Source: an uncultured Pseudomonadota bacterium (GTDB lineage Bacteria > Myxococcota_A > UBA796 > SXON01). From it: a stretch of DNA of 64,000 bases. Of the stretch, positions 22,531 through 45,034 are shown in pieces. The stretch's first letter is position 1, and every line of letters starts with the position of its first letter. The DNA is taken from positions 3,856 to 67,855 of the forward strand of contig CAIMSU010000332.1 in assembly GCA_903844155.1 (NCBI GenBank). The letters run 5' to 3'. A model generated the notes under the pieces. That model was not told where the DNA came from, searched no databases, and was given only the letters and a program-made list of their open reading frames with translations. Made by a program: the position numbers and the translations under genes.

Positions 22531-22566
22531 CGGGGCGTTAGCCGGTCTCCCCTCACGGAGTCCGGC

Positions 22567-23658: not shown

Positions 23659-24671
23659 GACCCGTTCGTGGGGTGCCGGTCGCGACGCTGAAGGAGAACC
23701 TCGCGGCGATGGCATGGTCGCCGGACGGCGCTGCGCTCGCGTGGATCGATCTGGACGGTGCCATCGGCGTGCTGCGCGGCGGGGCGGTGAAGCGCTTCCA
23801 GACCGAGCCGGGTCCGCTGTGCCTCGCCTGGTCGCCGGACAGCCGCCGGTTCCTGACCGGTGGTGAGGACGGGGTCGCGCGGATCCTGGACGTAGCCGAC
23901 GGGAGCGTGACCGAATTCGGCGTGGGCGAGGCGACGACGCCGGGATCCGCGTGGATCTCTGGCGCGGTCTGGGGACCGACCTGCATCGCGCTTGCGGTCG
24001 GTCGTCGGGTGGAGCTGCGGGCGCCCGACGGCGCTTTGAAGGGCGAGCCGACGGTGTTTTCAGCGACCGTCAGCGCGCTGGTCCGCGATCCCGCCCGCGA
24101 CGGATTCATCGCCACCGCCTACGGCGATGCCGTCGCCATTCCCGCGCTCTCCGGCGCCGTCCGCCGCTTTACGATGAAGGGGTCGATCCTCGCCGCCGCG
24201 CCATCGCCCGACGGACGCTACGTCGCCCTCGGCTGCCAGGATTCGTCCGCCATGATCTGGCAGCGCAACCTCGCGGACGGGGCGGATGCGGAACCTCTCC
24301 GGATGGGCGGATTCCCCGGGAAGGTCCTGCACCTTGCCTGGGGCGACGGGCCGACGCTCCTGACCGCGGGTGGCGACGCGCTGGCCTGCTGGAGCTTCGC
24401 GGGGCGCGGGCCCGCGGGGGCTGACGGCGAGGGACTGCCCGGTCACGCTGGCCGCATCCTCGCGGTGCAGACGGCTCGCCGCGGTCGCGTGATGGTGAGC
24501 GTTGGCGAGGAGGGTGCGACGTCGCGGGTGATCTGCTGGGGCTATCGGCGGTCCTGGGAGCCGTTGGCGTCGGTGCAGGTGCCCGTCTCCACCCTCGCCT
24601 TGCGGGCGGACGGGCTGGGTTTTGCGGTGGCGGGCGAGACCCTCACCGTGATGGAATTCCCGCAGGGCTGA
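23655..24671 (+). CDS. WD40-like beta-propeller repeat protein
   Basis: The GTG start overlaps the COG0523 stop (GTGA). Repeated units such as LAWSPDGAALA, LAWSPDSRRFLTGGEDG and PSPDGRYVALGCQDSSAMIW. Confidence 0.7.
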   Translation: MRPVRGVPVATLKENLAAMAWSPDGAALAWIDLDGAIGVLRGGAVKRFQTEPGPLCLAWSPDSRRFLTGGEDGVARILDVADGSVTEFGVGEATTPGSAWISGAVWGPTCIALAVGRRVELRAPDGALKGEPTVFSATVSALVRDPARDGFIATAYGDAVAIPALSGAVRRFTMKGSILAAAPSPDGRYVALGCQDSSAMIWQRNLADGADAEPLRMGGFPGKVLHLAWGDGPTLLTAGGDALACWSFAGRGPAGADGEGLPGHAGRILAVQTARRGRVMVSVGEEGATSRVICWGYRRSWEPLASVQVPVSTLALRADGLGFAVAGETLTVMEFPQG

Positions 24672-27129: not shown

Positions 27130-28590
27130 CTACCGGGGGACCGAGAGCCACACCCCGTCTGCCGATGCGGCGACGAGGCCGCGATCGATCATCGGCTCGA
27201 CGATGTCGAGGACCTGGTGCTCGGGCAACTCCATTCGTCGGGCCAGGACGGGCACAGTCAGCGCGCCAGTGCGCAGGTGTTGCATCACTTTTTGTGCGAC
27301 CGTGGTCAGGGTTTGCAGCGAAACGGGGGCGAGGATGCCCTGGACCGCGCCGGGCATCCCGGACGAGCGCCGCAGGACGGCCTCGGCGCGGTGGCGGTCG
27401 TGGCCAAGATTTTCGATGAGCAGCGTGATGTCGTCGAGCGTGAGCGGGCACGGATGGAGGTGGCGCGCGCCGCGGCGAGCGAGGGAGAGGAGCGGGCGGT
27501 CCGAGCGCACCAGCACGAGCGCAGAGGCCGGGTTCACGAGCAGCCGCAGCAGCAGATCCTCGCTGCCCGGAGCGCCGCCGTCGAGCGCGAGCACGCACGG
27601 CTCGCCGCTCGCGAGGTCCGCGGCGATGGCGTCCTGGTCGCCCGCCGGCACGATGCGCACACCTTCCCGCCGCGCGGCCTGGACGGTCTCGCGGATGAGC
27701 GCTCGCCGCCCCGATCCGGCCGGGCCGTGCAGCACGATCATCGAGCGTCCGCCTCCGATCGTCTCGACGAGCGCGCGGCGCAGCTGGTCACGCTCACGGG
27801 CCATCCCGACGATCGGCGCCCGGTTTGGCGTGCCGAGCGTGGCGCGAAGGTCCCCCGCGACGGCCCGAGCGGACGTGGGCCGGGCGCTCGGGCGGTGCGC
27901 CATGAGCTGCAGCACGAGCTCGTCCAGCGCGGCGGGCATCCGCGGGCGGACCGAGCTTGGGGGCTCGGGCAGCGTCGTCAACGGGGCCCAGACCAGCGCG
28001 TTGTTGTCGAGCGCTACGTCGCCCTTTCCGGGGCTGACGAAGGGTGGGCGACGGGTGAGGAGGGTGTGGATGATCGCGCCGAGGCCCCAGAGGTCTGTCG
28101 CGACCGTGGGGGCCGAGGAACGCAGCCGTTCGGGCGCCGCGTAGCCGGCCGTGGCGCCCGTCTCACCCGCCGGCGGGCCGTCGGTCGCGCTGCCGAGGTC
28201 GACCAGACGCGGCATGTTGTCATCGCCGACGAGCACGTTGCCTGGCTTCAGATCGCCGTGGATGACGCCCTCGGCGTGCAAGGTGCCGACGCCTTCAGCG
28301 AGCCGGGCGCTGAATTCCACGAGCGTCGAGAGCGGCTGACCGGGTGCCCACTCGGTCGAGGCTCCGCGGCTGGCGTGCTCCATCGCGAGCCAATCGCCTT
28401 CGGGGTCGGCGTCTACAAGCATGGCGATCGCGGGGTGGCGAAGCCGCCTCAGCAGCGCGACCTCGCGCCGCAGCGAGCCGGGCTGGTGGGCGACCTTCAG
28501 CGCAACGAGGCCGTCGGGGCCCTCGGCGAGCCACACGTGCGCGGTGGCGCCGCGCCCAAGTAGGCGGATCTGGCGGTACTTCTCCTTCAC
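27130..28590 (-). CDS. Ser/Thr protein kinase fused to a P-loop NTPase-like segment and a C-terminal winged-helix-like region
   Basis: Kinase motifs LGRGATAHVW, ALK, HGDLKPGNVLV, DLGSA and APE. Then MIVLHGPAGSGRRALI (P-loop). The C-terminal tail is ...LPEHQVLDIVEPMIDRGLV. The GTG at 28590 overlaps the upstream stop (GTGA); the alternative TTG is at 28599. Confidence 0.84.
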   Translation of the reverse strand: MKEKYRQIRLLGRGATAHVWLAEGPDGLVALKVAHQPGSLRREVALLRRLRHPAIAMLVDADPEGDWLAMEHASRGASTEWAPGQPLSTLVEFSARLAEGVGTLHAEGVIHGDLKPGNVLVGDDNMPRLVDLGSATDGPPAGETGATAGYAAPERLRSSAPTVATDLWGLGAIIHTLLTRRPPFVSPGKGDVALDNNALVWAPLTTLPEPPSSVRPRMPAALDELVLQLMAHRPSARPTSARAVAGDLRATLGTPNRAPIVGMARERDQLRRALVETIGGGRSMIVLHGPAGSGRRALIRETVQAARREGVRIVPAGDQDAIAADLASGEPCVLALDGGAPGSEDLLLRLLVNPASALVLVRSDRPLLSLARRGARHLHPCPLTLDDITLLIENLGHDRHRAEAVLRRSSGMPGAVQGILAPVSLQTLTTVAQKVMQHLRTGALTVPVLARRMELPEHQVLDIVEPMIDRGLVAASADGVWLSVPR

Positions 28591-28883
28591 GGATCCCAAA
28601 CCCGGGCCTGATCCTCAAGGTCGCGCTCGTCTGCCTGCAGCGCCTCGGCCTCCGTCTTCAACTCGCCCGCGCGTTTTTGAATCTTCTGCTCAATCTCAGC
28701 GCGCTTCTCGGGTGGGGCCGCGCGCCAGTCATCGATCCAGCCCTCGATCTCCTTGCAGTGCTGCGAGAGCACCGCGGCCTTGCGCCCGACCTCCGCGGTC
28801 TGCCCGGCGAGCACCGCAGAGGGCGACCCGCTCGGCGCCGGCCCGGTCGGGCGGTAGCAGGCGAGGATGAGCAGGAGGAGCAC
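28587..28883 (-). CDS. Small lipoprotein with coiled-coil-like tail
   Basis: GTG start, lipobox LILAC, charged helical C-terminus. Translationally coupled to the kinase gene. Confidence 0.5.
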   Translation of the reverse strand: MLLLLILACYRPTGPAPSGSPSAVLAGQTAEVGRKAAVLSQHCKEIEGWIDDWRAAPPEKRAEIEQKIQKRAGELKTEAEALQADERDLEDQARVWDP

Positions 28884-33167: not shown

Positions 33168-34016
33168 TCACGGCACCCCCGGCAACCGCGGATCCGTCAG
33201 GTCCCCGTGCTCCGGGAGGATCAAGTTTCGCCCCAGGAAACGCCGCAGGATCGGGTGTTCCGAGCGCACGACCTCCGCCGTCGTCCCGTTCGCGATGAGC
33301 TTGCCCTGGTAGAGCATGGCGATGCGGTCGGCGACGTTGATGGTGCCGACGATGTCGTGCGAGATGACGACGAACGTGATGCCAAGCTGCTCTTTCATGC
33401 TGTGGATGAGGGCGTCGATGGCGTCTGACGTCATGGGGTCGAGGCCGGAGTTGGGCTCGTCGAAGAGCACGATCTCCGGCTCATTCACGATGGCGCGGGC
33501 GAGGCCGACGCGCTTGCGCTGACCGCCGGAGAGGGCGCTGGTGGCGCGATCGTAGAGGCCGGGGAGCTCGACCATCTCGAGCACGTGGTCGACGCGCTCA
33601 CGCTTCTCGCGCGCGGAGAGGTCGGGGCGGTGTTGTTGCAGGGGGAAGGCGATGTTCTCGCCGACGCAGAGGGAGTCGAAGAGCGCGCCGTCCTGAAAGA
33701 GCATGCCGAGCCGCTTTCGCACGCGGTAGACCTCCGTGTGCTTCGCGCGGGACATGTCGATGCCAAGCACATGCACGCTGCCCGAGTCGGGGTGCAGCAG
33801 GCCGACGATGTGCTTGAGCAGCACGCTCTTGCCGGTGCCGGAGGGGCCGATGACGGCGGTCGTCTGGCCGCGGGCGAAGGTGAGGGACACGTCGTCGAGG
33901 ACGGTGAGGGCGCCGAACGCCTTGCACACGTGGTCGAACACGATCGGGGGCTTGTCGTCGTCGCGGGAGCCGGCGGGCAGCGACCCCGGCAGCATCGATC
34001 GCAGCTTGCTAGCCAT
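33168..34016 (-). CDS. mlaF: Mla/Mce-type ABC transporter ATP-binding protein
   Basis: Walker A GPSGTGKS, ABC signature LSGGQRKRVGLARA, Walker B IVLFDEP. Overlaps the permease gene by 8 nt. Confidence 0.86.
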   Translation of the reverse strand: MASKLRSMLPGSLPAGSRDDDKPPIVFDHVCKAFGALTVLDDVSLTFARGQTTAVIGPSGTGKSVLLKHIVGLLHPDSGSVHVLGIDMSRAKHTEVYRVRKRLGMLFQDGALFDSLCVGENIAFPLQQHRPDLSAREKRERVDHVLEMVELPGLYDRATSALSGGQRKRVGLARAIVNEPEIVLFDEPNSGLDPMTSDAIDALIHSMKEQLGITFVVISHDIVGTINVADRIAMLYQGKLIANGTTAEVVRSEHPILRRFLGRNLILPEHGDLTDPRLPGVP

Positions 34017-34740
34017 AGAGCACCTGCGAGACGAGGTAATTCAGCGAGACGCAGACGACGCTGGAGATGACCACCGCCGCGTTCGTTGCCTGGCCGACGC
34101 CCTCCGGGCCCTTCTTGCTCGCAAAACCACAGTAGGTGCTGACGAAACAGATGACGATGCCGAACAAGAACCCCTTGATCACGCCGGTCATCAGGTCAAA
34201 ACCGCTGGTGGCGTTTCGCGCGAATTCGAGGAAGACGGCGCCGTTCAGGCCGAGCTGGATCGTCGCGGTGAAGTAGCTGGCGGTGACGGTGGTGAAGATG
34301 GAGATGACCGTCAGCGCGGGCATGACGAGCATGATCCCGTACAGTCGCGGCGTGACGAGCCACCACAGCGGGTTGACGGCCATGACTTCGAGCGCGTCGA
34401 TCTGCTCGCGCGTCTTCATGACCGCGATCTGGCTGGCCATCTCGGTGCCGGCCTTGGAAGCCACCATCGCCGCAGCGATGATCGGCGCCAATTCCCGGAT
34501 CCCGGCGAGGGCGACGAACATGCCGACGAGCCGCTGCCCGCCGAGGGGGACGAAGGCGTTGTAGCCCTGCAAGCACAGGTTCGTGCCGACGAAGATGCTG
34601 ATGGTGAGCAGCACCGGCAGGCTCCGCACCCCGATGCGGTAGGCCTCCTCCATGCAGCGACCGGGCGGCGGTGCCTTGAGCGCGCACGCCGCGAACCAGT
34701 CGACCACGAACCCCGCGAAGCCGCCGAGCCAGCGGATCAT
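34009..34740 (-). CDS. mlaE: Mla/Mce-type ABC transporter permease (MlaE/YrbE family)
   Basis: Polytopic protein with characteristic segments ...RELAPIIAAAMVASKAGTEMASQIAVMKTREQIDALEVMAVNP.... Confidence 0.84.
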   Translation of the reverse strand: MIRWLGGFAGFVVDWFAACALKAPPPGRCMEEAYRIGVRSLPVLLTISIFVGTNLCLQGYNAFVPLGGQRLVGMFVALAGIRELAPIIAAAMVASKAGTEMASQIAVMKTREQIDALEVMAVNPLWWLVTPRLYGIMLVMPALTVISIFTTVTASYFTATIQLGLNGAVFLEFARNATSGFDLMTGVIKGFLFGIVICFVSTYCGFASKKGPEGVGQATNAAVVISSVVCVSLNYLVSQVLYG

Positions 34741-34821
34741 CGGGCTCGTCGGGGAAGGCGCACGCTGCAGGGTAATCCGGTCGTGCTCGGGGAAGGCGAC
34801 CTCGCGGGGTTAGCGGCGGCA

Positions 34822-36264
34822 GTGCCCGTCTCGGTCCAGCGCCGCTCGCTCCAGCTCCTGCCGCTCGCGCTGGTCAGCCGGGGCGTGGCGTTCACCGTGC
34901 CGATCTTCCTGGCCCAGTGGTACGGCGTGTCGGCGGACATGGACGCGTTCTACTACGCGCTTGGCATTCCGACGCTGCTGTTGGTGGTCGGCTCGAGCGC
35001 GGTCGGGAGCGTGCTGGTGCCGGCGCTGGCGCGTGTGCGGGGCACGGGCGACGATCGCGAGGGCGGCGCGCTGCTTGGGAGCGCGGCGGGCTGGGCTGGA
35101 CTCTCGGCTGTCGCGCTCGGCGCGTTGCTCGCGACGGTCCTTCCGCAGGTGCTGGCGCTGATCTCGGAGTTCACGCCGGCGACGATCGCGGAGACGCAGC
35201 GCTTCTGTTTTGAGCTGCTCCCGTTCCTCGGGTGCGTCGCCGCCGCGGGCGCGCTGCGGTCGGGCGTCGAGATCCAGGCCCGGTTCCTGTGGAGTACGAC
35301 GTCGCCGTTGTTGCGGACCGCCGCGTTGCTGACGGTCGCGGTGGCGCTGCGGCGCGAAGGTCCCCTGGGACTGCCGGTGGCCATGTTCGTCGGCGCGGTC
35401 GTGGAGATGCTGTGGTTGACCCTGGGACTCTGGCGTACACCGCTGCGGCCCACGCCGACGGTCTGGCCAGCAGCGCTCGGGCCGGCGCTCGCCCGTTTTG
35501 GACCGGTGCTCATCGGTGAGACGCTGGTCGCGCTGAACGTCGTCGTCGACAAGGTCTTTGCCGCGCTGCTTCCCGAGGGCAGCGTGAGCCTGCTCGAGTA
35601 CGCGGACCGCGCGCGCGTCATCCCGATGACGTTGTTTGAAGCATCCCTTCTGGTGGTTGCCTTCAACTCCTGGGCGGTCGTACCGGCGGCGGAGCGGGCG
35701 TCCGAGGTGCGACGTGCCCTGCGCTGGGTGCTGCTGATCGTCCCGCCGGTGCTCGGTGGGCTGTACGTTGGCCGGAACGTGGCGATCTCGCTGCTGTTTG
35801 AGCGGGGCGCCTTCACGCCGGACCACACGGTCGCCGTCGCCGCCGCGTTCGGCACGTTCCTGCCGGGCGTGCTCTCCGCCATGCTCGCCGGTCTGGCCGT
35901 CAAGGCGCACCTGCTGGCCGACCGGGCGCGTCTGGTCCTCGTCTACGGCCTGACATCGTTCGCGCTGAACATCGTGTTTGACGTGGCGCTGCTCCGCTAC
36001 GGGATCGCGGGTCTGGCGCTGGGGACGTCGCTCACGAGCATGATCGTCGCCGCGATCTCGCTGCGGAGACTCGCTGGAGACCTGCCGACGGGGCGGTCGT
36101 GGTGGAAGCCGGGGTTGCTGGCGGGCAGTAGCCTCGCGCTCGCGGCGGGCGCCGCCGTTTCGGGCGTTGCGCCAGCCTCCATGATCGACGGGCGACTATG
36201 GGCGGTGGCTGTGCCTTTTGTGGGGTTGCTGGTGGTTGGCCTGACCGAGGCGAGGCGGTCGTGA
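34822..36264 (+). CDS. murJ: Lipid II flippase MurJ/MviN family
   Basis: From an in-frame GTG at 34822: ...LALVSRGVAFTVPIFLAQWYGVSADMDAFYYALGIPTLL, the MurJ N-terminal pattern. About 14 TM segments. The upstream 360 codons of ORF 33736..36264 are antisense to mlaEF and were rejected. Confidence 0.78.
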   Translation: MPVSVQRRSLQLLPLALVSRGVAFTVPIFLAQWYGVSADMDAFYYALGIPTLLLVVGSSAVGSVLVPALARVRGTGDDREGGALLGSAAGWAGLSAVALGALLATVLPQVLALISEFTPATIAETQRFCFELLPFLGCVAAAGALRSGVEIQARFLWSTTSPLLRTAALLTVAVALRREGPLGLPVAMFVGAVVEMLWLTLGLWRTPLRPTPTVWPAALGPALARFGPVLIGETLVALNVVVDKVFAALLPEGSVSLLEYADRARVIPMTLFEASLLVVAFNSWAVVPAAERASEVRRALRWVLLIVPPVLGGLYVGRNVAISLLFERGAFTPDHTVAVAAAFGTFLPGVLSAMLAGLAVKAHLLADRARLVLVYGLTSFALNIVFDVALLRYGIAGLALGTSLTSMIVAAISLRRLAGDLPTGRSWWKPGLLAGSSLALAAGAAVSGVAPASMIDGRLWAVAVPFVGLLVVGLTEARRS

Positions 36265-37394
36265 GGCGAGTCGACCTCCTTTCGCGTGCCCTCGTCGCCT
36301 GCGCGCTCATGACGGCGCCGTACATCGACTGGGAGATCGCCGCGGATCTCGGGCGATGGCACCTGAACGTGCCCGTCGCGGACCTCTGCGCGCTCCTTGC
36401 GCTCGGACTTGCCGGCGTTTCAGGGCAGCTCGCGCGCGTGGGGATCGGCGAAACGCTCGGGTGGCTGACGCTCGTTGCCGTTGGCCTCGCATCTGCCCAC
36501 ATCGGTGCGGGCCTCCCTGGCGTCGGCCCGGACGGCTACCACACCCTGCTTCGGAAGCCGATCTTCATGCTCCTGGGGTGGCGCATCGCCTTTGCGGGGG
36601 TCGTCCGACGAACGACCGTTTGCGGGAACCGGCGATGGGCGATCGGGTGGTTGACGGCGGGTGCCTGCGTGTGTGCCGGGGTCCTGATCGCCAGCTCCAT
36701 CGCCCGCATTCAGGCAGGCCAGACGTTCTGGTGGGCCGCCATCGCCGGGCTGACCAACAACGGAAAGACGCTCGCAGTCTACCTCGCGCCCCTCCTCGCG
36801 CTCATCGGTTCACCCGTCGCCGTCGCGCTCGTGCTGATCGCGATCGGCCTCTCGTGGTCCAAGTCCGCGTGGATCACGGCGCTTTTCGCGCTCGCCTGGG
36901 TGCGGCTGCCCGCGCGCGTCCGCGGGCCCGTGGTCGCCGTCGGCGCCGTCGCCGGGCTCGTCGCCATGACGTTCCTCCCGTATCTCGCCCGTTCGCCCGA
37001 GCAGATCGACGCGCTGAACTCCCGCATCTCCCTCGACAAGCGCGCGTGGGAGATGTTCTGCGCGCACCCGTTCATCGGCTGGGGCGCCGGCTCCAACGTG
37101 CGCTACGAGGTCTCGACCTACCCGGACTACCGGGTCAACGGCGTCGACGCCCACGGTGTTTTCGCCAAGCTCGGCAGCGAATTCGGCGTCCTCGGCACGC
37201 TCGGCTGGCTCGTCGCCACGACGTCGCTCCTGCTGCACTTTCGCCGTCGCGCCCGCGGCTCCCGCTTCGACGACGCCCTGTACGGCTGCTTTCTCGCCCT
37301 CCACCTGAACCTGCTCACCTCCACGGAGACCTTCAGCCAGACGCACTGGGCGATCCTCGGCCTCCTCTGTGGTCTTTCAGCCCGCCGCCGCTGA
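36261..37394 (+). CDS. O-antigen ligase/polymerase (Wzy_C) family membrane protein
   Basis: The GTG overlaps the murJ stop. Polytopic. Loop motif SKSAWITALFAL...FCAHPFIGWGAGSNV is typical of O-antigen ligase-like proteins. Confidence 0.74.
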   Translation: MRRVDLLSRALVACALMTAPYIDWEIAADLGRWHLNVPVADLCALLALGLAGVSGQLARVGIGETLGWLTLVAVGLASAHIGAGLPGVGPDGYHTLLRKPIFMLLGWRIAFAGVVRRTTVCGNRRWAIGWLTAGACVCAGVLIASSIARIQAGQTFWWAAIAGLTNNGKTLAVYLAPLLALIGSPVAVALVLIAIGLSWSKSAWITALFALAWVRLPARVRGPVVAVGAVAGLVAMTFLPYLARSPEQIDALNSRISLDKRAWEMFCAHPFIGWGAGSNVRYEVSTYPDYRVNGVDAHGVFAKLGSEFGVLGTLGWLVATTSLLLHFRRRARGSRFDDALYGCFLALHLNLLTSTETFSQTHWAILGLLCGLSARRR

Positions 37395-37395
37395 C

Positions 37396-38652
37396 CTACA
37401 TCCCGTCGCAGGGGTCGTTGGGCTGGCCGGGGGTGCCGGCGTCGGTCATGCCGGCGGGGATGGTGGTCTCGTCGCACCAGTGCGCCATGTCGTCGTTGAG
37501 GACGCCGTCGAGCATCGTGGGATCGAGGCCGTAGGCGGCGCCGGGGATGATCGCGTCCGTGCTGGTGTCGTTGTAGTCGAACTTGTCGATGTCGACGCCG
37601 TCGGGGCTGGTGAGGTCGAGCTCGTCGTCGTTGTTGGCGATGGCCATGCCGGAGCCGTGGCCAGTGCCGGCGGCGGGCTCGATGCCGAGGGGGTTGCGGT
37701 AGAAGGCGGCGTCGCAGGGAACGCCACCGTTGGTGGTCGGGTCGATGTCGGCGCAGATGACGACGTACTCGTGGGGCGGGACTGGCACCGAGGCGTCGAA
37801 GACCCAGATGTCCGTGCCGTCGTCATGCAGCGTGTAATTCGCGAGGTCCAACGTGCTGCCTGACGTGTTGTACAGCTCCACGTACTCGCCATACTGGTCT
37901 TCCACGGCGTTGGGGTCGACCATGACCTCCGTGAAGATGAGGTCCCCGGGCTGGGGGACGACGACCTGATCGGTGACGTCCACGGTGATCGACGCCGAGC
38001 CGACCTCACCGTCCGTGTCCGTGCAGGTGAGCGTGATGACGTGGGTGGCGATGGTGAGCGACGACGTCAGCAGCGCGGACTGGCCGCCCCCGGAGATCGC
38101 GCCGGGGAGCGCACCGTCGACGTCCGAGGACCAGGCGAACACGAGGTCGTTGGGGGCCGTGGCGCTGTCGTTCGCCTCGCCGGTGAAGGTGATGGAGGTG
38201 CCCGCGGTGACGCTGGTGCCGTCGGCGGGTGCGGTGATGAGGACGACGGGCGGGCCGAGCGGGCCTTCGACCTGGAACGCCACGCTGGTCGACGCGGAGG
38301 AGCCGTCGAGGTCGGTGACGAGCATGTCGATGGTGTGGTCGCCGAGCGTCATCGTTGACGCGTCAAGGGGCGTCGAGACGTTCCCGTCGGCGTCAGCGGT
38401 GACGGGCGTGGCCGTCCCGCTGTCCAGCGACCAGGTGACGGCGAGCTGGGGCGCGGGATCTTCGGCGTCGCTGACGACGGCCTGGACGATGCCGTCGGTC
38501 CCTTGTCGCCAGACGGCGTCGGCGATCGGGGAGGTGATGCCGATGACCGGCTTCTGGTTCACGTGACCGATCTTGCTGTCCGATTGGCAGCCACCGAGCA
38601 TGGCGGCGAGACTGACGACGATCAACGTGCAGAAGTGGTGGGTCGGGTGCAT
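37396..38652 (-). CDS. Lipoprotein with two Ig-like domains and a C-terminal lamin-tail domain (LTD)
   Basis: Lipobox MLGGC. Two repeats of about 95 aa (VVSDAEDP...VAFQV and GEANDSATAP...ITVDV). The LTD pattern is LIFTEVMVDPNAVEDQYGEYVELYNTSGSTLDLANYTLHD. Confidence 0.8.
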   Translation of the reverse strand: MHPTHHFCTLIVVSLAAMLGGCQSDSKIGHVNQKPVIGITSPIADAVWRQGTDGIVQAVVSDAEDPAPQLAVTWSLDSGTATPVTADADGNVSTPLDASTMTLGDHTIDMLVTDLDGSSASTSVAFQVEGPLGPPVVLITAPADGTSVTAGTSITFTGEANDSATAPNDLVFAWSSDVDGALPGAISGGGQSALLTSSLTIATHVITLTCTDTDGEVGSASITVDVTDQVVVPQPGDLIFTEVMVDPNAVEDQYGEYVELYNTSGSTLDLANYTLHDDGTDIWVFDASVPVPPHEYVVICADIDPTTNGGVPCDAAFYRNPLGIEPAAGTGHGSGMAIANNDDELDLTSPDGVDIDKFDYNDTSTDAIIPGAAYGLDPTMLDGVLNDDMAHWCDETTIPAGMTDAGTPGQPNDPCDGM

Positions 38653-39127: not shown

Positions 39128-40072
39128 ATGTACCTTGAGCTCCGCCTCCTCGCCGGCAACGCCAACCCCGTGCTCGCCGCCGCCATCGCCGCGGCCATCG
39201 GGGCGCCGCTCGGCAACGCGCGTGTCGGCAAGTTCTCGGACGGCGAGATCCAGGTCGAGATCGAGGACAACGTGCGCGGGCGCGACGTCTTCCTCATCCA
39301 GCCGACCTGCTTTCCCGCCAACGACAACCTGATGGAATTGTTGATCATGGCGGACGCCTGCAAGCGGGCGAGCGCCGGGCGGATCACGGCGGTGATCCCG
39401 TACTATGGCTACTCGCGGCAGGACCGCAAGGTCGCCCCGCGTGCCCCGATCAGCGCCAAGCTCGTCGCCGACCTGCTCACCACCGCCGGCATCGACCGCG
39501 TGCTGACCATGGACCTGCACGCTGGCCAGATCCAGGGCTTCTTCAACATCCCGGTCGACAATCTCTACGCCGGGCCCACCCTGCGGGCCGCCGTCGCCAA
39601 GCACATCGACGGTGCGAACACCGTCATCGTCTCGCCAGACGCCGGGGGTGTCGAGCGCGCGCGCGGGTTCGCAAAGCCGCTCGGCGCCGGCCTCGCCATC
39701 ATCGACAAGCGCCGCAGCGGCCCGAACCAGTCCGAGGCGCTGCACATCATCGGCGACGTGAAGGAGAAGGACTGCGTGATCGTGGACGACATGATCGACA
39801 CGGCGGGCACGCTCACCAAGGCGGCGTCGGCGTTGAAGGGCGGGGGCGCTCGTCGGATCTTCGCGGTCGCCACGCATCCGGTCCTCTCCGGGCCGGCCAT
39901 CACGCGGCTGCAGGAGAGCGATGTCGAACGCGTGTTCGTCACCGACTCGATCCCGCTTCGCCCCGAGGCCGTCGCGAGCGGCAAATTCATGCAGGTGCCG
40001 GTCGCGACGCTGCTCGCCGAGGCGATGCGGTCGATCCACTCCAACGACTCCGTGAGCCGGCTCTTCCGGTAG
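39128..40072 (+). CDS. prs: Ribose-phosphate pyrophosphokinase (PRPP synthetase)
   Basis: N-terminus LRLLAGNANPVLAAAIA. Motifs YYGYSRQDRK and DLHAGQIQGFF. PRPP-binding loop CVIVDDMIDTAGT. Confidence 0.93.
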   Translation: MYLELRLLAGNANPVLAAAIAAAIGAPLGNARVGKFSDGEIQVEIEDNVRGRDVFLIQPTCFPANDNLMELLIMADACKRASAGRITAVIPYYGYSRQDRKVAPRAPISAKLVADLLTTAGIDRVLTMDLHAGQIQGFFNIPVDNLYAGPTLRAAVAKHIDGANTVIVSPDAGGVERARGFAKPLGAGLAIIDKRRSGPNQSEALHIIGDVKEKDCVIVDDMIDTAGTLTKAASALKGGGARRIFAVATHPVLSGPAITRLQESDVERVFVTDSIPLRPEAVASGKFMQVPVATLLAEAMRSIHSNDSVSRLFR

Positions 40073-40093: not shown

Positions 40094-42265
40094 ATGCGCG
40101 TAGCAGTCCTGACACGGCCCGACCTCTTCCCCGCGTGGCACGGCGCGGCGGTCAAGATCGTGCGGACGGTCGAGGCGCTCGCTGCGCGGGGCGACGTCGT
40201 CAGCGTGGTGACCGAGGATCGGGACCGGTACTGGCGCGTGGACCGTGAGGGCTGGCATGACGTGGCGTTTGGCGCCCGTTTTCGCGCGATGCAGGAGTGG
40301 CCGGTGCTTCGGAACCAGGCGCGGGCGGCGCGGTGGGTCGCGAGGGCGGGGTATCCCGTGGAAGAGCTGGCATTGTACCGGCCGATGTTCGACCCGGCGT
40401 GGTGGGCCAGGGTGCTGTACGTGGGGCACGCCGAGGCGATCGACGTCTGGCAGCCGGAGTTTCCGGGGTTTGTCGTGCCCGCGGTCCTCGCGCGACGGGT
40501 GCTCGGCGGGCGGATCACGGTCGGGACGCACAACGCCGAGTTTGACCGGTTGGCACAGACCAACTCGCTGGCGCCGGCGCGGCTGAAGCGCCTCCGTCGG
40601 ATCGAAGCCGCGTTGCTCAACCGCGCGGACGACGTCGTCGCCTGCTCCATGCCCGACGCGGAACGCCTGCGGGAAGCCGGCGTTGAACGTCCTATCTGGC
40701 ACGTGCCGCACGGGGTGGAGGTTGGCGCCTATCGAGGCCCCGGAACGCCCGATCTGCGCGTCCGGTACGGGCTCGGCGGCGGTCCCGTCGTCTTCTTCCA
40801 CGGCACGCTGCACTACGGTCCAAACCGCGATGCCGTCGAGTACCTCGCGCGCGAGCTGGCGCCGATTTTGCCGCCTGCGACGACCATCCTCATCGCAGGT
40901 CTGACTCCGCCGCGTGAGCTGGAGGGGCCGCAGGGCGACGGCGCGACGGTCCGGTTCACGGGCCCCGTCGACGACCTCGCGGGCCACATCCGGGCCGCGG
41001 ACGTGTGCGTGTGCCCCGTGTTTGCCGGCGGCGGGACGCGGATGAAGCTGTTGGAGTATTTCGCCGCGGGGAAGCCGGTGGTCTCGACGGCGCTAGGTGC
41101 TGAGGGGCTCAACGTCGAGCATGACCGGGAGCTGATCCTCGCGGAGCGGGCGGAGTTCGCGCGGGCGGTCGAGGACCTGCTCTGGGACGCGGCGCTGCGT
41201 CGTCGGGTGGGGCAGGCGGCGAGGCGTTGGGTGGGCGCGTACGACTGGAGCGCCGTCGGGCGGGCGTGGCAGGCGGTTCACCGGGGAGAAGGCCGGGATT
41301 TTGTGGCCGAGGTGCCGGTGGACGCGCACCTTCCCGTCCGCGCCGTGTCCAAGCCGCGCACGCTGCTCTTCCTGATAAACCGCGGCTGCAACCTACGTTG
41401 TTCGTTCTGCGACCTCTGGGAGGGGAGCGAGAACGTCTCGCTGGAGCGGGCGGCGTCGTTGTTCGACGAGGCCGTCGCCATTGAGACGAAGTCGGTCGTG
41501 CTGACCGGTGGCGAGCCGATGATCCACCCGCAGTTTTTTGAGATCGTCGCTGCGGCGCGGGCGAGGGGGCTCTCGGTGAACGTGACGACGAACGGCACGT
41601 TGGTTGAGCGAAACTGGGCGCGGATCCTGGAGTCTCGGCTGGACAGTCTGTCGATGAGCATTGACGGGCTTCCGGAGACGCACGATCGGCTCCGCGGGCG
41701 CACGGGATCGTTCGCCCGCACGTGGAAAGCGCTGGAGCGTGTGGTGGCGCACGGGCTTGACGCGTGCGTGTACTTCACCGTCACGCGCGAGAACGTCGGC
41801 GAGCTTGTGGAGGTCTGGCGCCGGGTAATGAGGCTCGGCGCCCGCTTTGACTTCTGGCCCGTGAACGACGCCCCGGACCTCTACCTGCGCGCCGAGGACG
41901 AGCCTGTCTGGCGCGCCGCCGTCGAGACCATCGCGGCCACGGACCCTGCTGTGGCTGGTCGAGCGCACTACTACGCGCAGGCGCTCGGCTACCACCGCGG
42001 TGAAACCGGGCCCGTCCGCTGCCTCGGCTTCATCGATCAGTACGGCGTGCGCTACGACGGCGCGTTCCTGCCGTGCTGCGTGTGGGGCGGCGAGGGGCTG
42101 GCGGCCGGAAACGTATGGGAAACGCCGCTTTCCACGCTTTGGCGCTCTCCGGAGGTTCAGGCGAGGCGCGAGCGGCTCTACGCGGCCGGCTGCACGGTCG
42201 GCTGCTACAACCACAGCTTGTACGAATTCGGTGTTTCGACCGGGCTTTCACACCGGTTGCCCTGA
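40094..42265 (+). CDS. Fusion protein: GT4/GT1-type glycosyltransferase (N-terminal) plus radical SAM domain with SPASM/twitch-like Cys motifs (C-terminal)
   Basis: GT-B C-terminal pattern: FFHGTLHYGPN...GGGTRMKLLEYFAAGKPVVST. Then the CX3CX2C radical SAM motif in the context GCNLRCSFCD, and GGEPM. The tail has C-X12-G-X4-C (CLGFIDQYGVRYDGAFLPC) and GCTVGC. Confidence 0.84.
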   Translation: MRVAVLTRPDLFPAWHGAAVKIVRTVEALAARGDVVSVVTEDRDRYWRVDREGWHDVAFGARFRAMQEWPVLRNQARAARWVARAGYPVEELALYRPMFDPAWWARVLYVGHAEAIDVWQPEFPGFVVPAVLARRVLGGRITVGTHNAEFDRLAQTNSLAPARLKRLRRIEAALLNRADDVVACSMPDAERLREAGVERPIWHVPHGVEVGAYRGPGTPDLRVRYGLGGGPVVFFHGTLHYGPNRDAVEYLARELAPILPPATTILIAGLTPPRELEGPQGDGATVRFTGPVDDLAGHIRAADVCVCPVFAGGGTRMKLLEYFAAGKPVVSTALGAEGLNVEHDRELILAERAEFARAVEDLLWDAALRRRVGQAARRWVGAYDWSAVGRAWQAVHRGEGRDFVAEVPVDAHLPVRAVSKPRTLLFLINRGCNLRCSFCDLWEGSENVSLERAASLFDEAVAIETKSVVLTGGEPMIHPQFFEIVAAARARGLSVNVTTNGTLVERNWARILESRLDSLSMSIDGLPETHDRLRGRTGSFARTWKALERVVAHGLDACVYFTVTRENVGELVEVWRRVMRLGARFDFWPVNDAPDLYLRAEDEPVWRAAVETIAATDPAVAGRAHYYAQALGYHRGETGPVRCLGFIDQYGVRYDGAFLPCCVWGGEGLAAGNVWETPLSTLWRSPEVQARRERLYAAGCTVGCYNHSLYEFGVSTGLSHRLP

Positions 42266-42324
42266 GAGCCTCCAGCCTGAACCCCCCAGCCTTGATAGCT
42301 GCGCCCGCAAGTGAGGATGCGACG

Positions 42325-43074
42325 ATGCCGTGGGTGTCTGTACAGTTCAAGGGCAAGGAGGTCTGGGCCGAGTGCGACGCTGCAGGGGCGCCGGTGGTGA
42401 CAGGTGCGCTGCGACGCGTGCGCTACTCCCCGGCTGCGGGTGCCAAGCTCTACACGGCAAACGCTGGAAACATCCAGGCGACGGGCGCCCGGCCGGTGGA
42501 CCTGCCGGAGGGGACCGCGCAGGAGCCAGCCGCGACGGGCAGCGCGCCGGGGTCGGTCGGTCGGACGGGTAGCGGTTTCGGGAAGGCGGGGACGAGGACA
42601 GCCGCGCAGGCGACGGCCGCGAAGGTGGACGCAAAAGCCCGGTTGGATGCGCTTGGTCCCGAGGTCATCCGGGCGTTCACCGATGGCGCGTGCTCGGGAA
42701 ATCCCGGGCCGGCGGGGGCGGGCTGCGTGGTCAAGCTGCCGGACGGGCGGGTCATCGAGCGCCACAAGGGGCTCGGCGAGGGGACGAACAACATCGCGGA
42801 GCTCGTCGCCATCGGCATGGCGCTGGAGGTGCTGCGCGAGCTTGGGGTCGACAAGCAGAGCCCCGTCGCGATCTTCTCGGACTCGGCCTACGCGCAGGGG
42901 GTGTTGACGAAAGGCTGGAAGGCGAAGGCAAATGTCGTGCTCATCCGCAAGATCCGCGAGGCGATGGCGGAGTGGCCGAAGGTGGAGTTGAACTGGGTCG
43001 CCGGGCACGTCGGCATCGCGGAGAACGAGCGGGCGGACGCGCTGGCGAACAAGGGCGTGTACGAGAGCCGGTAA
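42325..43074 (+). CDS. rnhA: Ribonuclease HI with an N-terminal extension of about 115 aa
   Basis: RNase H core: FTDGACSGNPGPAGAGCVV...TNNIAELVAIGMALE...IFSDSAY...GHVGIAENERADALA. The ATG at 42325 is preferred. Confidence 0.84.
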   Translation: MPWVSVQFKGKEVWAECDAAGAPVVTGALRRVRYSPAAGAKLYTANAGNIQATGARPVDLPEGTAQEPAATGSAPGSVGRTGSGFGKAGTRTAAQATAAKVDAKARLDALGPEVIRAFTDGACSGNPGPAGAGCVVKLPDGRVIERHKGLGEGTNNIAELVAIGMALEVLRELGVDKQSPVAIFSDSAYAQGVLTKGWKAKANVVLIRKIREAMAEWPKVELNWVAGHVGIAENERADALANKGVYESR

Positions 43075-43077
43075 GCG

Positions 43078-43722
43078 TCAGGCGTCGCGGCGGAACATCA
43101 CGTCGGTGCGCAGGACGGTCTTTCGGCCGGCCGTGACCAACGCGCCCTCGTGCAGGATGCGGTGCTGAAAGAGGAGGGCCATGCCGCGTTTTGGCACGAC
43201 CGCGGTTCGGCCATCGAGGAACCGGGTGGCGCCGCCCTCGCAGCCCTCGTCGAGGTAGAACATCAGCGTGAGCTGGGATTCCTCGACGTTGGACCGACGA
43301 AAGGAGCCGTCGATGTGCGGCGCGAAGACCTGACCGGGCCCGTAGCGGTACACGCGCAGGCGCTCGTTCAGGCCGATCGGCCGCCAGGCGTCGTACATCA
43401 CCATGGGGATCGTGTGGGCAACGCGATCGTAGAGCATCGCCGCGAGGCCCGGGTGGTCGACCATCGCCCGATCGTTGTTGCGGATGTCCGGACGCATGAC
43501 CGGACCGATCGCTGTCGTGATTGGCGCGATCGAGAGGTCGAGCGTGTCGACCCATTCCAGCAGCTCGTCGCATTCGGTGGCGGTCAGCGCCTCGTCTACG
43601 CACCACACGAGCGCGCAGGAAGGGTCCACGACGAACCCCTGAAACCTGCCAGGAAAACCCGGCAGGACCACGCGCGCAGGCAAGCGCGGGGCGACGTCCT
43701 CAGTTGTCCTGCGCCCCGTCAT
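43078..43722 (-). CDS. 2OG-Fe(II) oxygenase (prolyl 4-hydroxylase-like)
   Basis: Motifs YGPGQVFAPHIDG (HxD), ...LLFQHRILHEG (distal His) and ...RKTVLRTDVMF. The start is uncertain: ATG 43722 overlaps the upstream gene by 23 nt, and the alternative is GTG 43671. Confidence 0.74.
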   Translation of the reverse strand: MTGRRTTEDVAPRLPARVVLPGFPGRFQGFVVDPSCALVWCVDEALTATECDELLEWVDTLDLSIAPITTAIGPVMRPDIRNNDRAMVDHPGLAAMLYDRVAHTIPMVMYDAWRPIGLNERLRVYRYGPGQVFAPHIDGSFRRSNVEESQLTLMFYLDEGCEGGATRFLDGRTAVVPKRGMALLFQHRILHEGALVTAGRKTVLRTDVMFRRDA

Positions 43723-44071
43723 CGATCCAGCTCTCCAGCTCGGCGAGGTGCGTTGCGTCCAGGCCACCGCTACCCGACGGCATCGCGATGCCGGTGATCC
43801 CCGACTGGTTTGCGCACTTCTGCCAGAGAAAGCTGTTGGCGTGGTCGCCGGGCTCGACGAGGTTGATCGAAGGATCCAGCGAGGACGGCACGCCGACGGT
43901 CGCCGCGTAGGAGTTGCCATCGGTGAGCGAGAGGCCCTGGGCGCCGCCGCCGCTGCCGTGGCAGGTCGAGAACGCGCAGGACTTTGTGTAGATGTCGGCC
44001 TGGACGTCGGTGAGCGTGGATGGGGCCGGGGCACCGGTGCAGCCGGTCAGCAAGAAAACGAGGAGCAACAT
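43700..44071 (-). CDS. Small lipoprotein with PSCyt1-like cytochrome c domain (CX4CH variant)
   Basis: Lipobox LLTGC. The pattern IYTKSCAFSTCHGSGGGAQGLSL...LVEPGDHANSFLWQK...MPSGSGGLDATHLAELESWIDDGA mirrors the planctomycete-type cytochrome c domain. Confidence 0.62.
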   Translation of the reverse strand: MLLLVFLLTGCTGAPAPSTLTDVQADIYTKSCAFSTCHGSGGGAQGLSLTDGNSYAATVGVPSSLDPSINLVEPGDHANSFLWQKCANQSGITGIAMPSGSGGLDATHLAELESWIDDGAQDN

Positions 44072-44077
44072 GGATCT

Positions 44078-45034
44078 TCAGTCCGAGCAGATGTCAGCGG
44101 TGAGGGCGGGGTAGACCATCGAGACGGCCGCGCACATCTCGCCGGGGAACGTGAGGTCGTTGTCCGTGTCGTTGTACCATTCGCAGGTTGTACGCCAGAC
44201 GCTGCCCGCTTCGGCGACGAAGGGGCTGGCGGTGTGGTCCTCGATCGGGGGCGTGTCCCGATAGGCCGGGTCCCATTGCTCCTCGTAGAAGGTGGTGGAG
44301 GTGCCGTCGGGATCGATCTTCTCGAGCTTGAAGTGCGTGCCCCACTCGTGCATGTGCCCGATGAAGTACAGCATGTTGTAGGGCGTCGCGAAGGTGCAGT
44401 CGAACGTGTCGGTCTGCGCGGAGTGGGCGGGGATGCTGAACTTGTCCTCGTTGGTGGTCCAAGGCGCTGCCCAGTCGGTGACCTGGTCGTCCGGAATCGT
44501 GTTGGAGATGCCGATGGCGTTGACCAGCAGCGTGTTTCCGGACGTGTTCACGTTGTGGACCTGCAGGATCGTCCGCTGCCCGCTGCGGAGCTTCGTCGCG
44601 ATGCCGGTCGGGAGTGCCATGCCGAACGCCTCGCCATTGCCGCCGGTCGGCAGGATGATGGGCTGCAGGTCGCTCATCGGCAGATCGGCGGTCTGCGTGC
44701 AGTCGAAGAACTCGCCGTCCGGCATGTCGATCGCGTTGGTGCTCGTACCGAGCAGGAGTACGTGGTGGCCGTACTCCGCCTGCTGGTAGCCGCCGAACGT
44801 GGTGAGCGCGACGTCGGGACCGGTGTACGTGCCGGCGAGGCACATCTGGGTGTCGGTGTAGGGAGGCACTTCGAACGCCGGCATCTCCCACGAGATGTCG
44901 GTCGGGCCGACGGCCGGGTAGTCGACGCCAGCGGTCATCGTGAGGTCGACGACGGCGCTGCCGGAGCCCGTGTCGGCGGGTTGGGTGCAGGCGCCGAGCG
45001 CGGGGAGGATCAGGAGGAGGAGAGGGGAACGCAT
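44078..45034 (-). CDS. Lipoprotein, copper type II ascorbate-dependent monooxygenase (PHM/DBH)-like
   Basis: Lipobox ALGAC. The spaced motifs match the CuH and CuM ligand sets of peptidylglycine alpha-hydroxylating monooxygenase: YGHHVLLLG (HH), TILQVHNVN (compare PHM LQVHY), GHMHEWG (HxH) and PGEMCAAVSMVY (compare PHM DEMCNLYIMYY). Confidence 0.76.
   Translation of the reverse strand: MRSPLLLLILPALGACTQPADTGSGSAVVDLTMTAGVDYPAVGPTDISWEMPAFEVPPYTDTQMCLAGTYTGPDVALTTFGGYQQAEYGHHVLLLGTSTNAIDMPDGEFFDCTQTADLPMSDLQPIILPTGGNGEAFGMALPTGIATKLRSGQRTILQVHNVNTSGNTLLVNAIGISNTIPDDQVTDWAAPWTTNEDKFSIPAHSAQTDTFDCTFATPYNMLYFIGHMHEWGTHFKLEKIDPDGTSTTFYEEQWDPAYRDTPPIEDHTASPFVAEAGSVWRTTCEWYNDTDNDLTFPGEMCAAVSMVYPALTADICSD

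Follow-up and report, generated by a model that had tools for sequence, protein, structure and literature searches.

To our knowledge, radical S-adenosylmethionine (SAM) enzymes that act on sugars have so far come mainly from antibiotic pathways, as stand-alone proteins. BlsE, the cytosylglucuronate decarboxylase of blasticidin S synthesis, abstracts a hydrogen on a pyranose and decarboxylates a glucuronide derived from UDP (uridine diphosphate)-glucuronic acid, and the residues of its GGEP motif are essential (PMC3715490). A further paper describes Cys249 of the epimerase NeoN as the hydrogen donor in sugar epimerisation, and the twitch epimerase HygY, in which mutation of one Cys yields a dehydrogenase (PMC10991966). 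The route proposed for calditol has a glycosyl head group remodelled by a radical SAM enzyme (PMC13459092), and WbdD modifies the chain end of the O-antigen and controls its length (PMC3482155). Here we describe a gene in which glycosyltransferase (GT) and radical SAM domains form a single protein. It lies on a stretch of 64,000 nucleotides (hereafter the window; NCBI GenBank assembly GCA_903844155.1, contig CAIMSU010000332.1, positions 3,856 to 67,855 of the forward strand) from an uncultured bacterium placed by GTDB in Myxococcota_A, and consists of one uninterrupted open reading frame (ORF; 40094..42265, plus strand, ATG to TGA) of 723 aa. Its two parts, a GT-B glycosyltransferase and a twitch-type radical SAM enzyme, are of known kinds, and the logic of glycosyl transfer followed by radical SAM chemistry has precedents with separate proteins (blasticidin S and the proposed calditol route). 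The sources that we searched describe neither a conserved single polypeptide that joins the two nor the broader pattern of GT-A and GT-B enzymes, within Wzm/Wzt glycan clusters, to which a dedicated clade of radical SAM domains is attached.

Both halves of the product are recognised by Pfam above threshold. The N-terminal half matches Glyco_transf_4 (aa 17-209, 39.1 bits for a cut-off of 28.5), Glyco_trans_1_4 (aa 231-363, 80.3 bits for a cut-off of 27) and Glycos_transf_1 (33.8 bits for 26.4), and the C-terminal half matches Radical_SAM (PF04055; aa 428-563, 94.3 bits for 29.5, E = 1e-26) and, slightly over the gathering score of 21.5, SPASM (PF13186; aa 647-701, 25.5 bits). The motifs quoted in a preliminary description of this DNA, made from the letters alone, are all present in the 723-aa product as described: GGGTRMKLLEYFAAGKPVVST at aa 312, GCNLRCSFCD at aa 431, GGEPM at aa 472, C-x12-G-x4-C at aa 643-661, PCC at aa 660 and GCTVGC at aa 699. 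That description had also taken the fusion to be genuine, and the present data bear this out. The GC content at third codon positions stays between 0.82 and 0.88 in each 300-nt window along the ORF, domain junction included, and between 41250 and 41400 the other two frames offer no better reading than the fusion frame. A search of 5.8 billion protein clusters returned 314 that match the fusion (E<=1e-10); the best 120 of these cover at least 96% of the query, contain both the GT and the radical SAM domain and share 49-100% identity with the window protein, and SPASM is listed for all except two of them. Using the FDFWPVNDA block as a search pattern in one genome per GTDB species, we found relatives on 98 contigs, all from metagenome-assembled genomes (MAGs) of lake, river or marine samples, mostly labelled Myxococcota or 'Deltaproteobacteria', with no cultured organism among them. 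Alignment of 29 diverse members gave a mean column identity of 62% with dense conservation in both halves, which, as judged from these residues, are under strong purifying selection, both putative active sites being rich in invariant positions. An artefact of assembly or annotation, in which a sequencing error would have joined two genes, is at odds with the uniform third-position composition, with the continuous frame and with the recurrence of the identical architecture in over 100 assemblies made independently in different studies; nothing was found in its favour, the conservation of the fusion across assemblies refutes it, and we give it next to no credence.

The pairing does not correspond to a characterised architecture, as had been suspected from the sequence. 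No NCBIfam equivalog model reaches its cut-off on the protein, database names are generic ('radical SAM protein' or 'MoaA/NifB/PqqE/SkfB family radical SAM enzyme/glycosyltransferase involved in cell wall biosynthesis'), and a full-text literature search returned no description of a GT-radical SAM fusion. In the literature on ABC-transporter-dependent glycan assembly, the term 'radical SAM' does not appear among the matches listed.

AlphaFold2 gave a confident model of the full-length protein (mean predicted local distance difference test score, pLDDT, 89; predicted template modelling score, pTM, 0.76), with a GT-B fold in the N-terminal half and a BlsE-like radical SAM half. Residues 397-422 form neither helix nor strand, and the only stretch with a pLDDT below 50 is 433-441. 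The N-terminal domain (aa 1-395; 40094..41278), assigned as a GT4-like GT-B glycosyltransferase from Pfam, Foldseek and its invariant residues, gives template modelling (TM) scores of 0.72-0.76 to MshA, sucrose-phosphate synthase and BshA, and superposes on the retaining GT4 enzymes GlgM, HepE, PglA and PimA as well (TM ~0.7). The nearest curated family is TIGR03087, the glycosyltransferase of the PEP-CTERM/XrtA system, to which the protein does not belong (84.3 bits for a cut-off of 316.65). Of the earlier label 'GT4-type retaining', the fold and the Pfam families fit, and the catalytic signature does not. In PimA, E274 and E282 form the EX7E pair of Glu residues, and R196 and K202 bind the donor diphosphate. 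Aligned with PimA, the fusion keeps the second Glu (E282 corresponds to E321) and has G313 in place of the first (E274), while R196 aligns with the invariant T238 and K202 with the variable D246; the domain thus lacks both the complete EX7E pair and the Arg/Lys pair. The presumed nucleotide-sugar donor site is the GGGTRMKLLEY motif (aa 312-322; 41027..41059), placed by the alignments of the 29 members and with PimA; among the 29 members, G312 to R316, K318 and E321 are invariant. More generally, H16, E122, H146, N147, E149, R152, H236, T238, H240, Y241, N244, R316, K318 and E321 make up an invariant polar set spread over both Rossmann lobes. That the family has an invariant polar set of its own speaks for a functional active site in which the donor pocket is a variant one.

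The two domains are connected by a linker (aa 396-419; 41279..41350; alignment columns 446-490) that carries the sole large indel of the 29-member alignment, a lineage-specific insertion of ~25 aa in one subclade, and this location fits a genuine inter-domain linker. The radical SAM core that follows, a partial TIM barrel (aa 420-600; 41351..41893), is supported by Pfam, by profile matches to SkfB and BlsE in the PDB and by the alternation of strands and helices in the AlphaFold2 model. It has the hallmarks of the superfamily, namely the PF04055 score, the CX3CX2C motif and GGEP. The ligands of the [4Fe-4S] cluster, C432-x3-C436-x2-C439 (41387..41410), are invariant in the 29 aligned fusions and 97-100% conserved in 41 members of the wider clade described below, and each residue of the SAM-binding GGEP motif (aa 472-475; 41507..41518) is 100% conserved in these 41. 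A further block, FDFWPVNDA (aa 585-593; 41846..41872), is invariant in the fusion family and is a signature of the clade, in which F587, P589 and V590 are 97-100% conserved.

When the radical SAM half was compared with known structures, the best Foldseek match was BlsE (7vob; TM 0.73 over 327 residues, 330 aligned columns, E = 7e-14), a likeness that spans the whole domain and places it, in structure, near the sugar-modifying radical SAM enzymes (BlsE, DesII, BtrN and NeoN), which are grouped by function and do not form one sequence family; DesII, which like BlsE acts on a sugar, was also among the matches. Profile comparisons with the BlsE core gave E-values of 4e-22 and 2e-30. The clade profile aligned with SkfB over its whole length, Cys tail included (E = 4e-32), and with BtrN solely through the C-terminal region (profile positions 238-306), where no single stretch passes the threshold alone.

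The C-terminal domain (aa 640-723; 42011..42262) contains C643, C661, C662, C700 and C704 and is best described as a twitch-like, that is abridged SPASM, iron-sulfur domain. Exactly eight Cys columns are conserved in the 41 clade members, whatever their architecture: the three of CX3CX2C and these five, conserved at 97-100% with the spacing C643-x12-G656-x4-C661, C662, C700-x3-C704. The SPASM signature reportedly comprises seven Cys, as CX9-15GX4C - gap - CX2CX5CX3C - gap - C, which suffice to ligate two auxiliary clusters, and with five conserved tail Cys the domain does not carry it, despite its Pfam SPASM score. SPASM domains are defined by two auxiliary clusters (PMC13459092). The tail has a CX9-15GX4C hairpin and downstream Cys that would suffice for one cluster, so that five Cys fit one auxiliary cluster plus one spare Cys, as in a twitch-type domain of the BtrN, SkfB and HygY kind; the profile alignments with the C-terminal regions of SkfB and BtrN agree with this. 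We take C-x12-G-x4-C followed by two downstream Cys to be the single-auxiliary-cluster layout of twitch enzymes. Of the 'SPASM/twitch-like tail' initially proposed, the twitch-like part stands and a full SPASM domain does not.

The radical SAM half belongs to a small and well separated clade whose members are repeatedly coupled to glycosyltransferases. A phmmer search of 1.84 billion representative proteins with this half as the query returned 64 representatives (E<=1e-30), to which architectures were assigned with local profiles and Pfam. Window-type GT4 domains are fused to 10 of them (6 full-length and 4 fragments), a different GT-B domain to one (P0135, from a Woesearchaeota archaeon), and GT2 domains, which have the unrelated GT-A fold, to 13, eight of which carry a second radical SAM domain in tandem; among the GT2-fused members, P0129 and P0133 are named as Omnitrophota. 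A further 10 are stand-alone proteins of ~320-365 aa, and the remaining representatives are fragments or have N-termini without an assignment. Among the stand-alone members, P0126 (locus L084) comes closest, with 47% identity to the radical SAM half of the window protein, and a separate GT4 gene ends 2 bp upstream of it. This GT4 reaches 419 bits with the profile of the GT half and shares 42% identity with the window GT half; a second radical SAM gene comes after this pair. By their sequences, the two genes of L084 represent the fusion in split form. The attachment to GTs of two unrelated folds, together with the split-gene form, is classical Rosetta-stone evidence for a radical SAM domain that acts in the same pathway as the glycosyltransferase.

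The surroundings of distant clade members add to this picture. At three unrelated loci, L087, L090 (Omnitrophota) and L091 (Woesearchaeota), clade members lie directly beside genes for Wzm (ABC2_membrane) and Wzt (ABC_tran and Wzt_C), accompanied by several genes for GT2 and GT4 enzymes and by additional radical SAM genes, and L090 also encodes an initiating transferase of the WecA/MraY type. This is the layout of ABC-transporter-dependent, polyprenol-linked glycan assembly. The indirect pointers to a carbohydrate substrate are the fusion or adjacency to glycosyltransferases of two folds and the Wzm/Wzt context of the relatives.

Several architectures seen in the course of this survey deserve mention in their own right. 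Proteins of 1130-1490 aa combine a GT2 domain, an unassigned region of ~300-650 aa and two tandem radical SAM domains (L090:10001-13540, P0129, P0131, P0138, P0140, P0143, P0158 and P0164), and the giant gene of L090 lies ~1.5 kb downstream of Wzm/Wzt(Wzt_C), with one unassigned 415-aa gene between them. In P0141, which has a GT2 and a single radical SAM domain, the middle region weakly matches the coiled-coil-type RNase_Y_N (aa 431-521); O-antigen chain terminators use coiled-coil molecular rulers, of which this region is reminiscent. L090 additionally encodes, at 21904-23540, a protein with the reverse order of domains (N-terminal Radical_SAM/SPASM, then GT4 domains; 802 aa, running off the locus), which is another independent radical SAM-GT fusion. 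At L086 (5828-13979), a run of tandem radical SAM/SPASM genes that includes the clade member P0139 is followed by a HAD hydrolase; two genes of the run are apparently split into separate Radical_SAM and SPASM ORFs, and no GT lies nearby.

From these features we propose that the window gene encodes a bifunctional enzyme of glycoconjugate synthesis, which would combine the transfer of a sugar with its modification through radical chemistry, a reading to which we give slightly better than even chances. The protein sequence contains no hydrophobic segment and the enzyme is predicted to be soluble and cytoplasmic. The analysis establishes which domains are present, how their motifs are conserved and that the coupling to glycosyltransferases recurs; from there we infer the donor, the acceptor, the order of the steps and the type of reaction as follows. 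The GT-B domain would bind a nucleotide-sugar at GGGTR-x-K-x2-E321 and transfer the sugar to an acceptor. The radical SAM domain would hold a [4Fe-4S] cluster through C432, C436 and C439, bind SAM through GGEP and cleave it to the 5'-deoxyadenosyl radical, which would abstract a hydrogen atom from the same sugar, just after or just before transfer. One auxiliary iron-sulfur cluster, held by four of C643, C661, C662, C700 and C704, would complete the reaction together with the spare Cys. The likeliest chemistries are oxidation to a keto-sugar, as with BtrN, epimerisation with a Cys as hydrogen donor, as with NeoN and HygY, and decarboxylation, as with BlsE; by analogy with these enzymes we think first of the transferred sugar being oxidised or epimerised and, as alternatives, of its decarboxylation or rearrangement, and the extra Cys of the C661-C662 pair could act as hydrogen donor in the manner of NeoN and HygY. 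If a rare sugar were made in situ from a common donor, the lack of sugar-nucleotide genes around the gene would be accounted for. The coupling of glycosyl transfer and radical chemistry on one substrate, already put forward in the preliminary description, gains support from the clade fusions to GT-B and GT2 domains and from the split adjacent genes, as far as sequence comparison can tell. More tentatively, and with less confidence than in bifunctionality as such, the clade may stand for a hitherto undescribed way of tailoring glycans, in which a domain tethered to the glycosyltransferase that installs the sugar would epimerise, oxidise, decarboxylate or ring-rearrange it during cytoplasmic assembly on a polyprenol; in the Wzm/Wzt-linked relatives it may produce a chain-terminating cap read by Wzt_C, and the window fusion may be a streamlined, core-genome version making a lineage-specific envelope sugar out of a common nucleotide-sugar.

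In the window, the fusion lies 21 nt downstream of prs (ribose-phosphate pyrophosphokinase; 39128..40072, plus strand; Pfam), an incidental context, and is followed by an RNase H gene (42325..43074, plus strand; Pfam RNase_H), whose likely ATG lies 59 nt past the fusion stop (the ORF as listed spans 42073-43074), both flanks being as first described. The RNase H domain occupies aa 116-245 of that product, after an N-terminal extension of ~115 aa without Pfam match that consists of a short domain and then a low-complexity Ala/Gly/Thr linker. RNase H is directly downstream and on the same strand in 41 of the 63 related loci with enough sequence and is the only commonly conserved adjacent gene of the fusion. 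As a functional partner, prs was rejected, being adjacent upstream in only 3 of 65 related loci. Clustering of the flanking ORFs of at least 90 aa over 84 related loci revealed, as recurrent neighbours, RNase H and, further downstream, RNase HII and nuoA/nuoC/nuoD; a MaoC dehydratase, a GT2 and a thioredoxin-like lipoprotein recur in particular subclades. No dedicated pathway genes recur near the fusion in this set. The initial impression that the gene stands alone, with no precursor-peptide or sugar-nucleotide genes nearby, holds for the window and, among ORFs of at least 90 aa, for the 84 loci alike, and the search for co-occurring genes in relatives returned RNase H, RNase HII and nuo and no pathway genes. 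The neighbourhood of the window-type gene is inherited core-genome gene order, and the fusion behaves as a housekeeping gene of its lineage rather than like a component of a mobile biosynthetic island. A search of the window for Wzm/Wzt, for a second radical SAM gene and for a separate GT4 gene found none; the sole match in the Wzm/Wzt search was a generic ABC ATPase (33168-34016). A promoter and terminator scan detected nothing promoter-like between 38600 and 43400, and the gaps on either side of the fusion, towards prs and towards RNase H, were free of terminator-like sites, so that the three genes may be co-transcribed. The terminator-like matches inside coding sequence or outside both gaps look like chance.

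Further genes of the window and features of the carrier genomes were observed independently of the above. A gene for a MurJ-family lipid II flippase (33736-36264, plus strand; the listed ORF is over-long at its 5' end, the Pfam match beginning at aa 393) is followed by a Wzy_C gene, O-antigen ligase/polymerase-like (36198-37394, plus strand). These two lie ~3-6 kb upstream of the fusion and form a loose envelope context that is not conserved across loci. The Wzy_C-like ORF was considered as the counterpart of a ~394-aa gene found immediately upstream of the fusion at L001 and L002 and discarded, as the two have no similarity; the L001/L002 gene encodes a thioredoxin-like lipoprotein (CGPC, AhpC/Redoxin-like), occurs in 16 loci only and lacks a homolog in the window. 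A predicted lipoprotein with Big_7 Ig-like and Lamin Tail Domain (LTD, E = 2e-17) matches is encoded on the minus strand (37396-38652), in the interval that separates the Wzy_C gene from prs. Also on the minus strand, a 123-aa predicted lipoprotein with a conserved SCAFSTCHG motif (43700-44071), which recurs in 15 related loci, adjoins a gene for a 318-aa secreted protein without Pfam match (44078-45034), and is overlapped by an ORF listed as a 2OG-Fe(II) oxygenase (43078-44034, minus strand), the true start of which is probably further downstream. More distant is a Ser/Thr protein kinase fused to an AAA_16 (STAND-type) ATPase (27130-28599, minus strand), near genes for a WD40 beta-propeller (23562-24671) and a CobW-family GTPase (22567-23658). 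Note that many of the MAGs that carry the fusion (L004-L083) are titled Klebsiella pneumoniae, Bifidobacterium breve or 'uncultured Enterobacterales'. Compared with the window protein, their fusions show 46-77% identity, similar to those of the Myxococcota-labelled MAGs, and most loci of the set have 60-77% GC; the titles look like taxonomic mislabels.

Several observations weigh against a bifunctional sugar-modifying enzyme. No member of the clade has been studied experimentally or has a known reaction, and the top sequence scores go to peptide-modifying enzymes, SkfB in the PDB and StsB in NCBIfam. The window-type family is without a glycan cluster, its recurrent neighbours over the 84 loci being only RNase H, RNase HII and nuo, and two of the four stand-alone clade members inspected have no GT gene nearby, one adjoining menaquinone genes (L085) and the other lying within the tandem radical SAM/SPASM genes of L086. 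Finally, the loss of the first EX7E Glu and of the PimA-type Arg/Lys pair makes the catalytic competence of the GT half uncertain. With Gly (G313) at the position of the first and T238 and a variable Asp at those of R196 and K202, the GT-B domain might instead be an inactive module that binds a nucleotide-sugar or glycan and presents it to the radical SAM domain as the sole catalyst. This seems improbable to us, given the dense invariant polar residues of the two Rossmann lobes, a pattern that active enzymes whose donor site is variant typically show, and the match of the GGGT-R-x-K region to Glyco_trans_1_4 at 80 bits. The same sequence scores could also point to a maturase of peptides that are made ribosomally and modified after translation (RiPPs), in which the radical SAM domain would crosslink or modify a ribosomal peptide or protein and the GT would glycosylate it: StsB (NCBIfam, E = 1e-28) and SkfB and CteB (PDB) are the top matches, and SPASM/twitch enzymes are best known from peptide maturation. 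The NCBIfam scores are, however, far under their cut-offs (StsB 100 for 625 bits, SkfB 62 for 300, PapB 60 for 340, mycofactocin maturase 78 for 265), the GT domain sits where a peptide-recognition domain (RiPP recognition element, RRE) would precede the radical SAM core, the gaps of 21 and 59 nt to prs and RNase H have no space for an adjacent precursor gene, and no precursor-type neighbour recurs among the ORFs of at least 90 aa in the 84 loci. As the clade relatives occupy polysaccharide export clusters and the full-length fold is matched best by BlsE, a sugar enzyme, we regard a peptide substrate as even less probable than an inactive GT domain.

The most serious competitor concerns the acceptor. 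A head-group enzyme of glycolipids, whose GT domain would glycosylate a membrane lipid or small polyol and whose radical SAM domain would rearrange or oxidise the head-group sugar, would suit the closest solved GT relatives, PimA, MshA, BshA, GlgM and sucrose-phosphate synthase, whose acceptors are small molecules or lipids, and a lone core-genome gene is what would be expected of a membrane-lipid function. Genes of lipid metabolism do occur around some subclades of the family, as MaoC dehydratase in 24 loci, a fatty-acid desaturase at L001, a lipase at L002 and LPG_synthase_TM near P0032, and the proposed calditol route provides a precedent for radical SAM chemistry on a glycosyl head group (PMC13459092). 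Yet no lipid gene is consistently linked to the fusion across the 84 loci, the distant clade members are found in Wzm/Wzt polysaccharide clusters and not in lipid clusters, and the fusion has no membrane-binding segment, though PimA-type enzymes are also peripheral. A polyprenol-linked glycan as the acceptor is thus favoured by the distant clade relatives, and a membrane lipid or small polyol by the nearest solved GT relatives and the lone core-gene status; we consider the glycolipid enzyme unlikely overall, and still more plausible than the other rival functions. Least credible among these is the modification of nucleic acids, in which the protein would glycosylate and radical-modify a base or sugar of DNA or RNA in partnership with the downstream RNase H. 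Phage T4 has GT-B enzymes that glucosylate DNA, the RNase H gene follows directly in those 41 of 63 loci over fusion identities of 42-79% with no terminator-like site in the gap, 30 loci have RNase HII ~3.4 kb downstream, and the window has prs as an immediate neighbour. Against this, the adjacency of RNase H is missing in one third of the loci and that of prs in all but 3 of 65, the nuo operon surroundings point to inherited core-genome order and not to a functional unit, the clade relatives associate with glycosyltransferases and Wzm/Wzt and not with nucleic-acid enzymes, and Pfam found no nucleic-acid-binding domain; we hold this reading to be highly improbable.

A bifunctional enzyme that transfers and radically modifies a sugar remains the preferred reading. 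The ties of the clade to glycosyltransferases, with two folds, split genes and Wzm/Wzt in bacteria as well as an archaeon, point to a so far unrecognised radical step in the synthesis of cell-surface glycans or glycolipids. If true, this would be a new type of reaction in polysaccharide biosynthesis, would explain unusual sugars made without dedicated nucleotide-sugar pathways, and would allow glycosyl transfer and radical modification to be studied side by side in one polypeptide. As all carriers are uncultured, the product may be an undescribed, new envelope component of widespread freshwater and marine Myxococcota. As a lead to new radical chemistry in the making of glycans or glycolipids, the fusion is clean, well conserved and amenable to experiment.

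Set beside the known systems, the fusion shares features with several. With the retaining GT4 enzymes MshA, PimA, BshA, sucrose-phosphate synthase and GlgM it has in common the GT-B fold, the Pfam families and the second Glu of EX7E; it differs from them by the Gly at the first and, in place of the PimA-type Arg/Lys pair, has the H236/T238/H240/Y241/N244 block together with R316/K318. BlsE (PDB 7VOB/7VOC) has the same CX3CX2C and GGEP motifs but is a stand-alone protein of ~360 aa from an antibiotic cluster, with no fused GT, and its sequence similarity to the clade ends after the core, at profile position 182. The tail, with a presumed single auxiliary cluster and a spare Cys, resembles those of the dehydrogenase BtrN and of the epimerases NeoN and HygY; these are small stand-alone proteins of aminoglycoside pathways with low overall sequence similarity to the fusion. 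The maturases SkfB, StsB, CteB, SuiB and PqqE give the highest sequence scores, and SkfB aligns with the Cys tail included; unlike them, the fusion has no peptide-recognition domain or precursor gene, keeps five of the seven SPASM Cys and has glycosyltransferases as genomic partners. Among glycan systems, WbdD, the kinase-methyltransferase chain terminator of E. coli O9a, is likewise multidomain, as the clade relatives are with a GT and a modifying domain beside Wzm/Wzt_C. The C-terminal domain of Wzt binds the terminal modification in characterised systems. In these relatives, the modifying domain is instead a radical SAM domain, and the window gene has no Wzm/Wzt neighbour. The calditol synthase Cds and the hopanoid enzymes HpnI/HpnJ, which carry out a GT step and then radical SAM remodelling in hopanoid synthesis, can be likened to the fusion by their pathway logic: they follow the same order of glycosyl transfer and then radical SAM chemistry, with separate proteins for the steps that the window gene joins in one.

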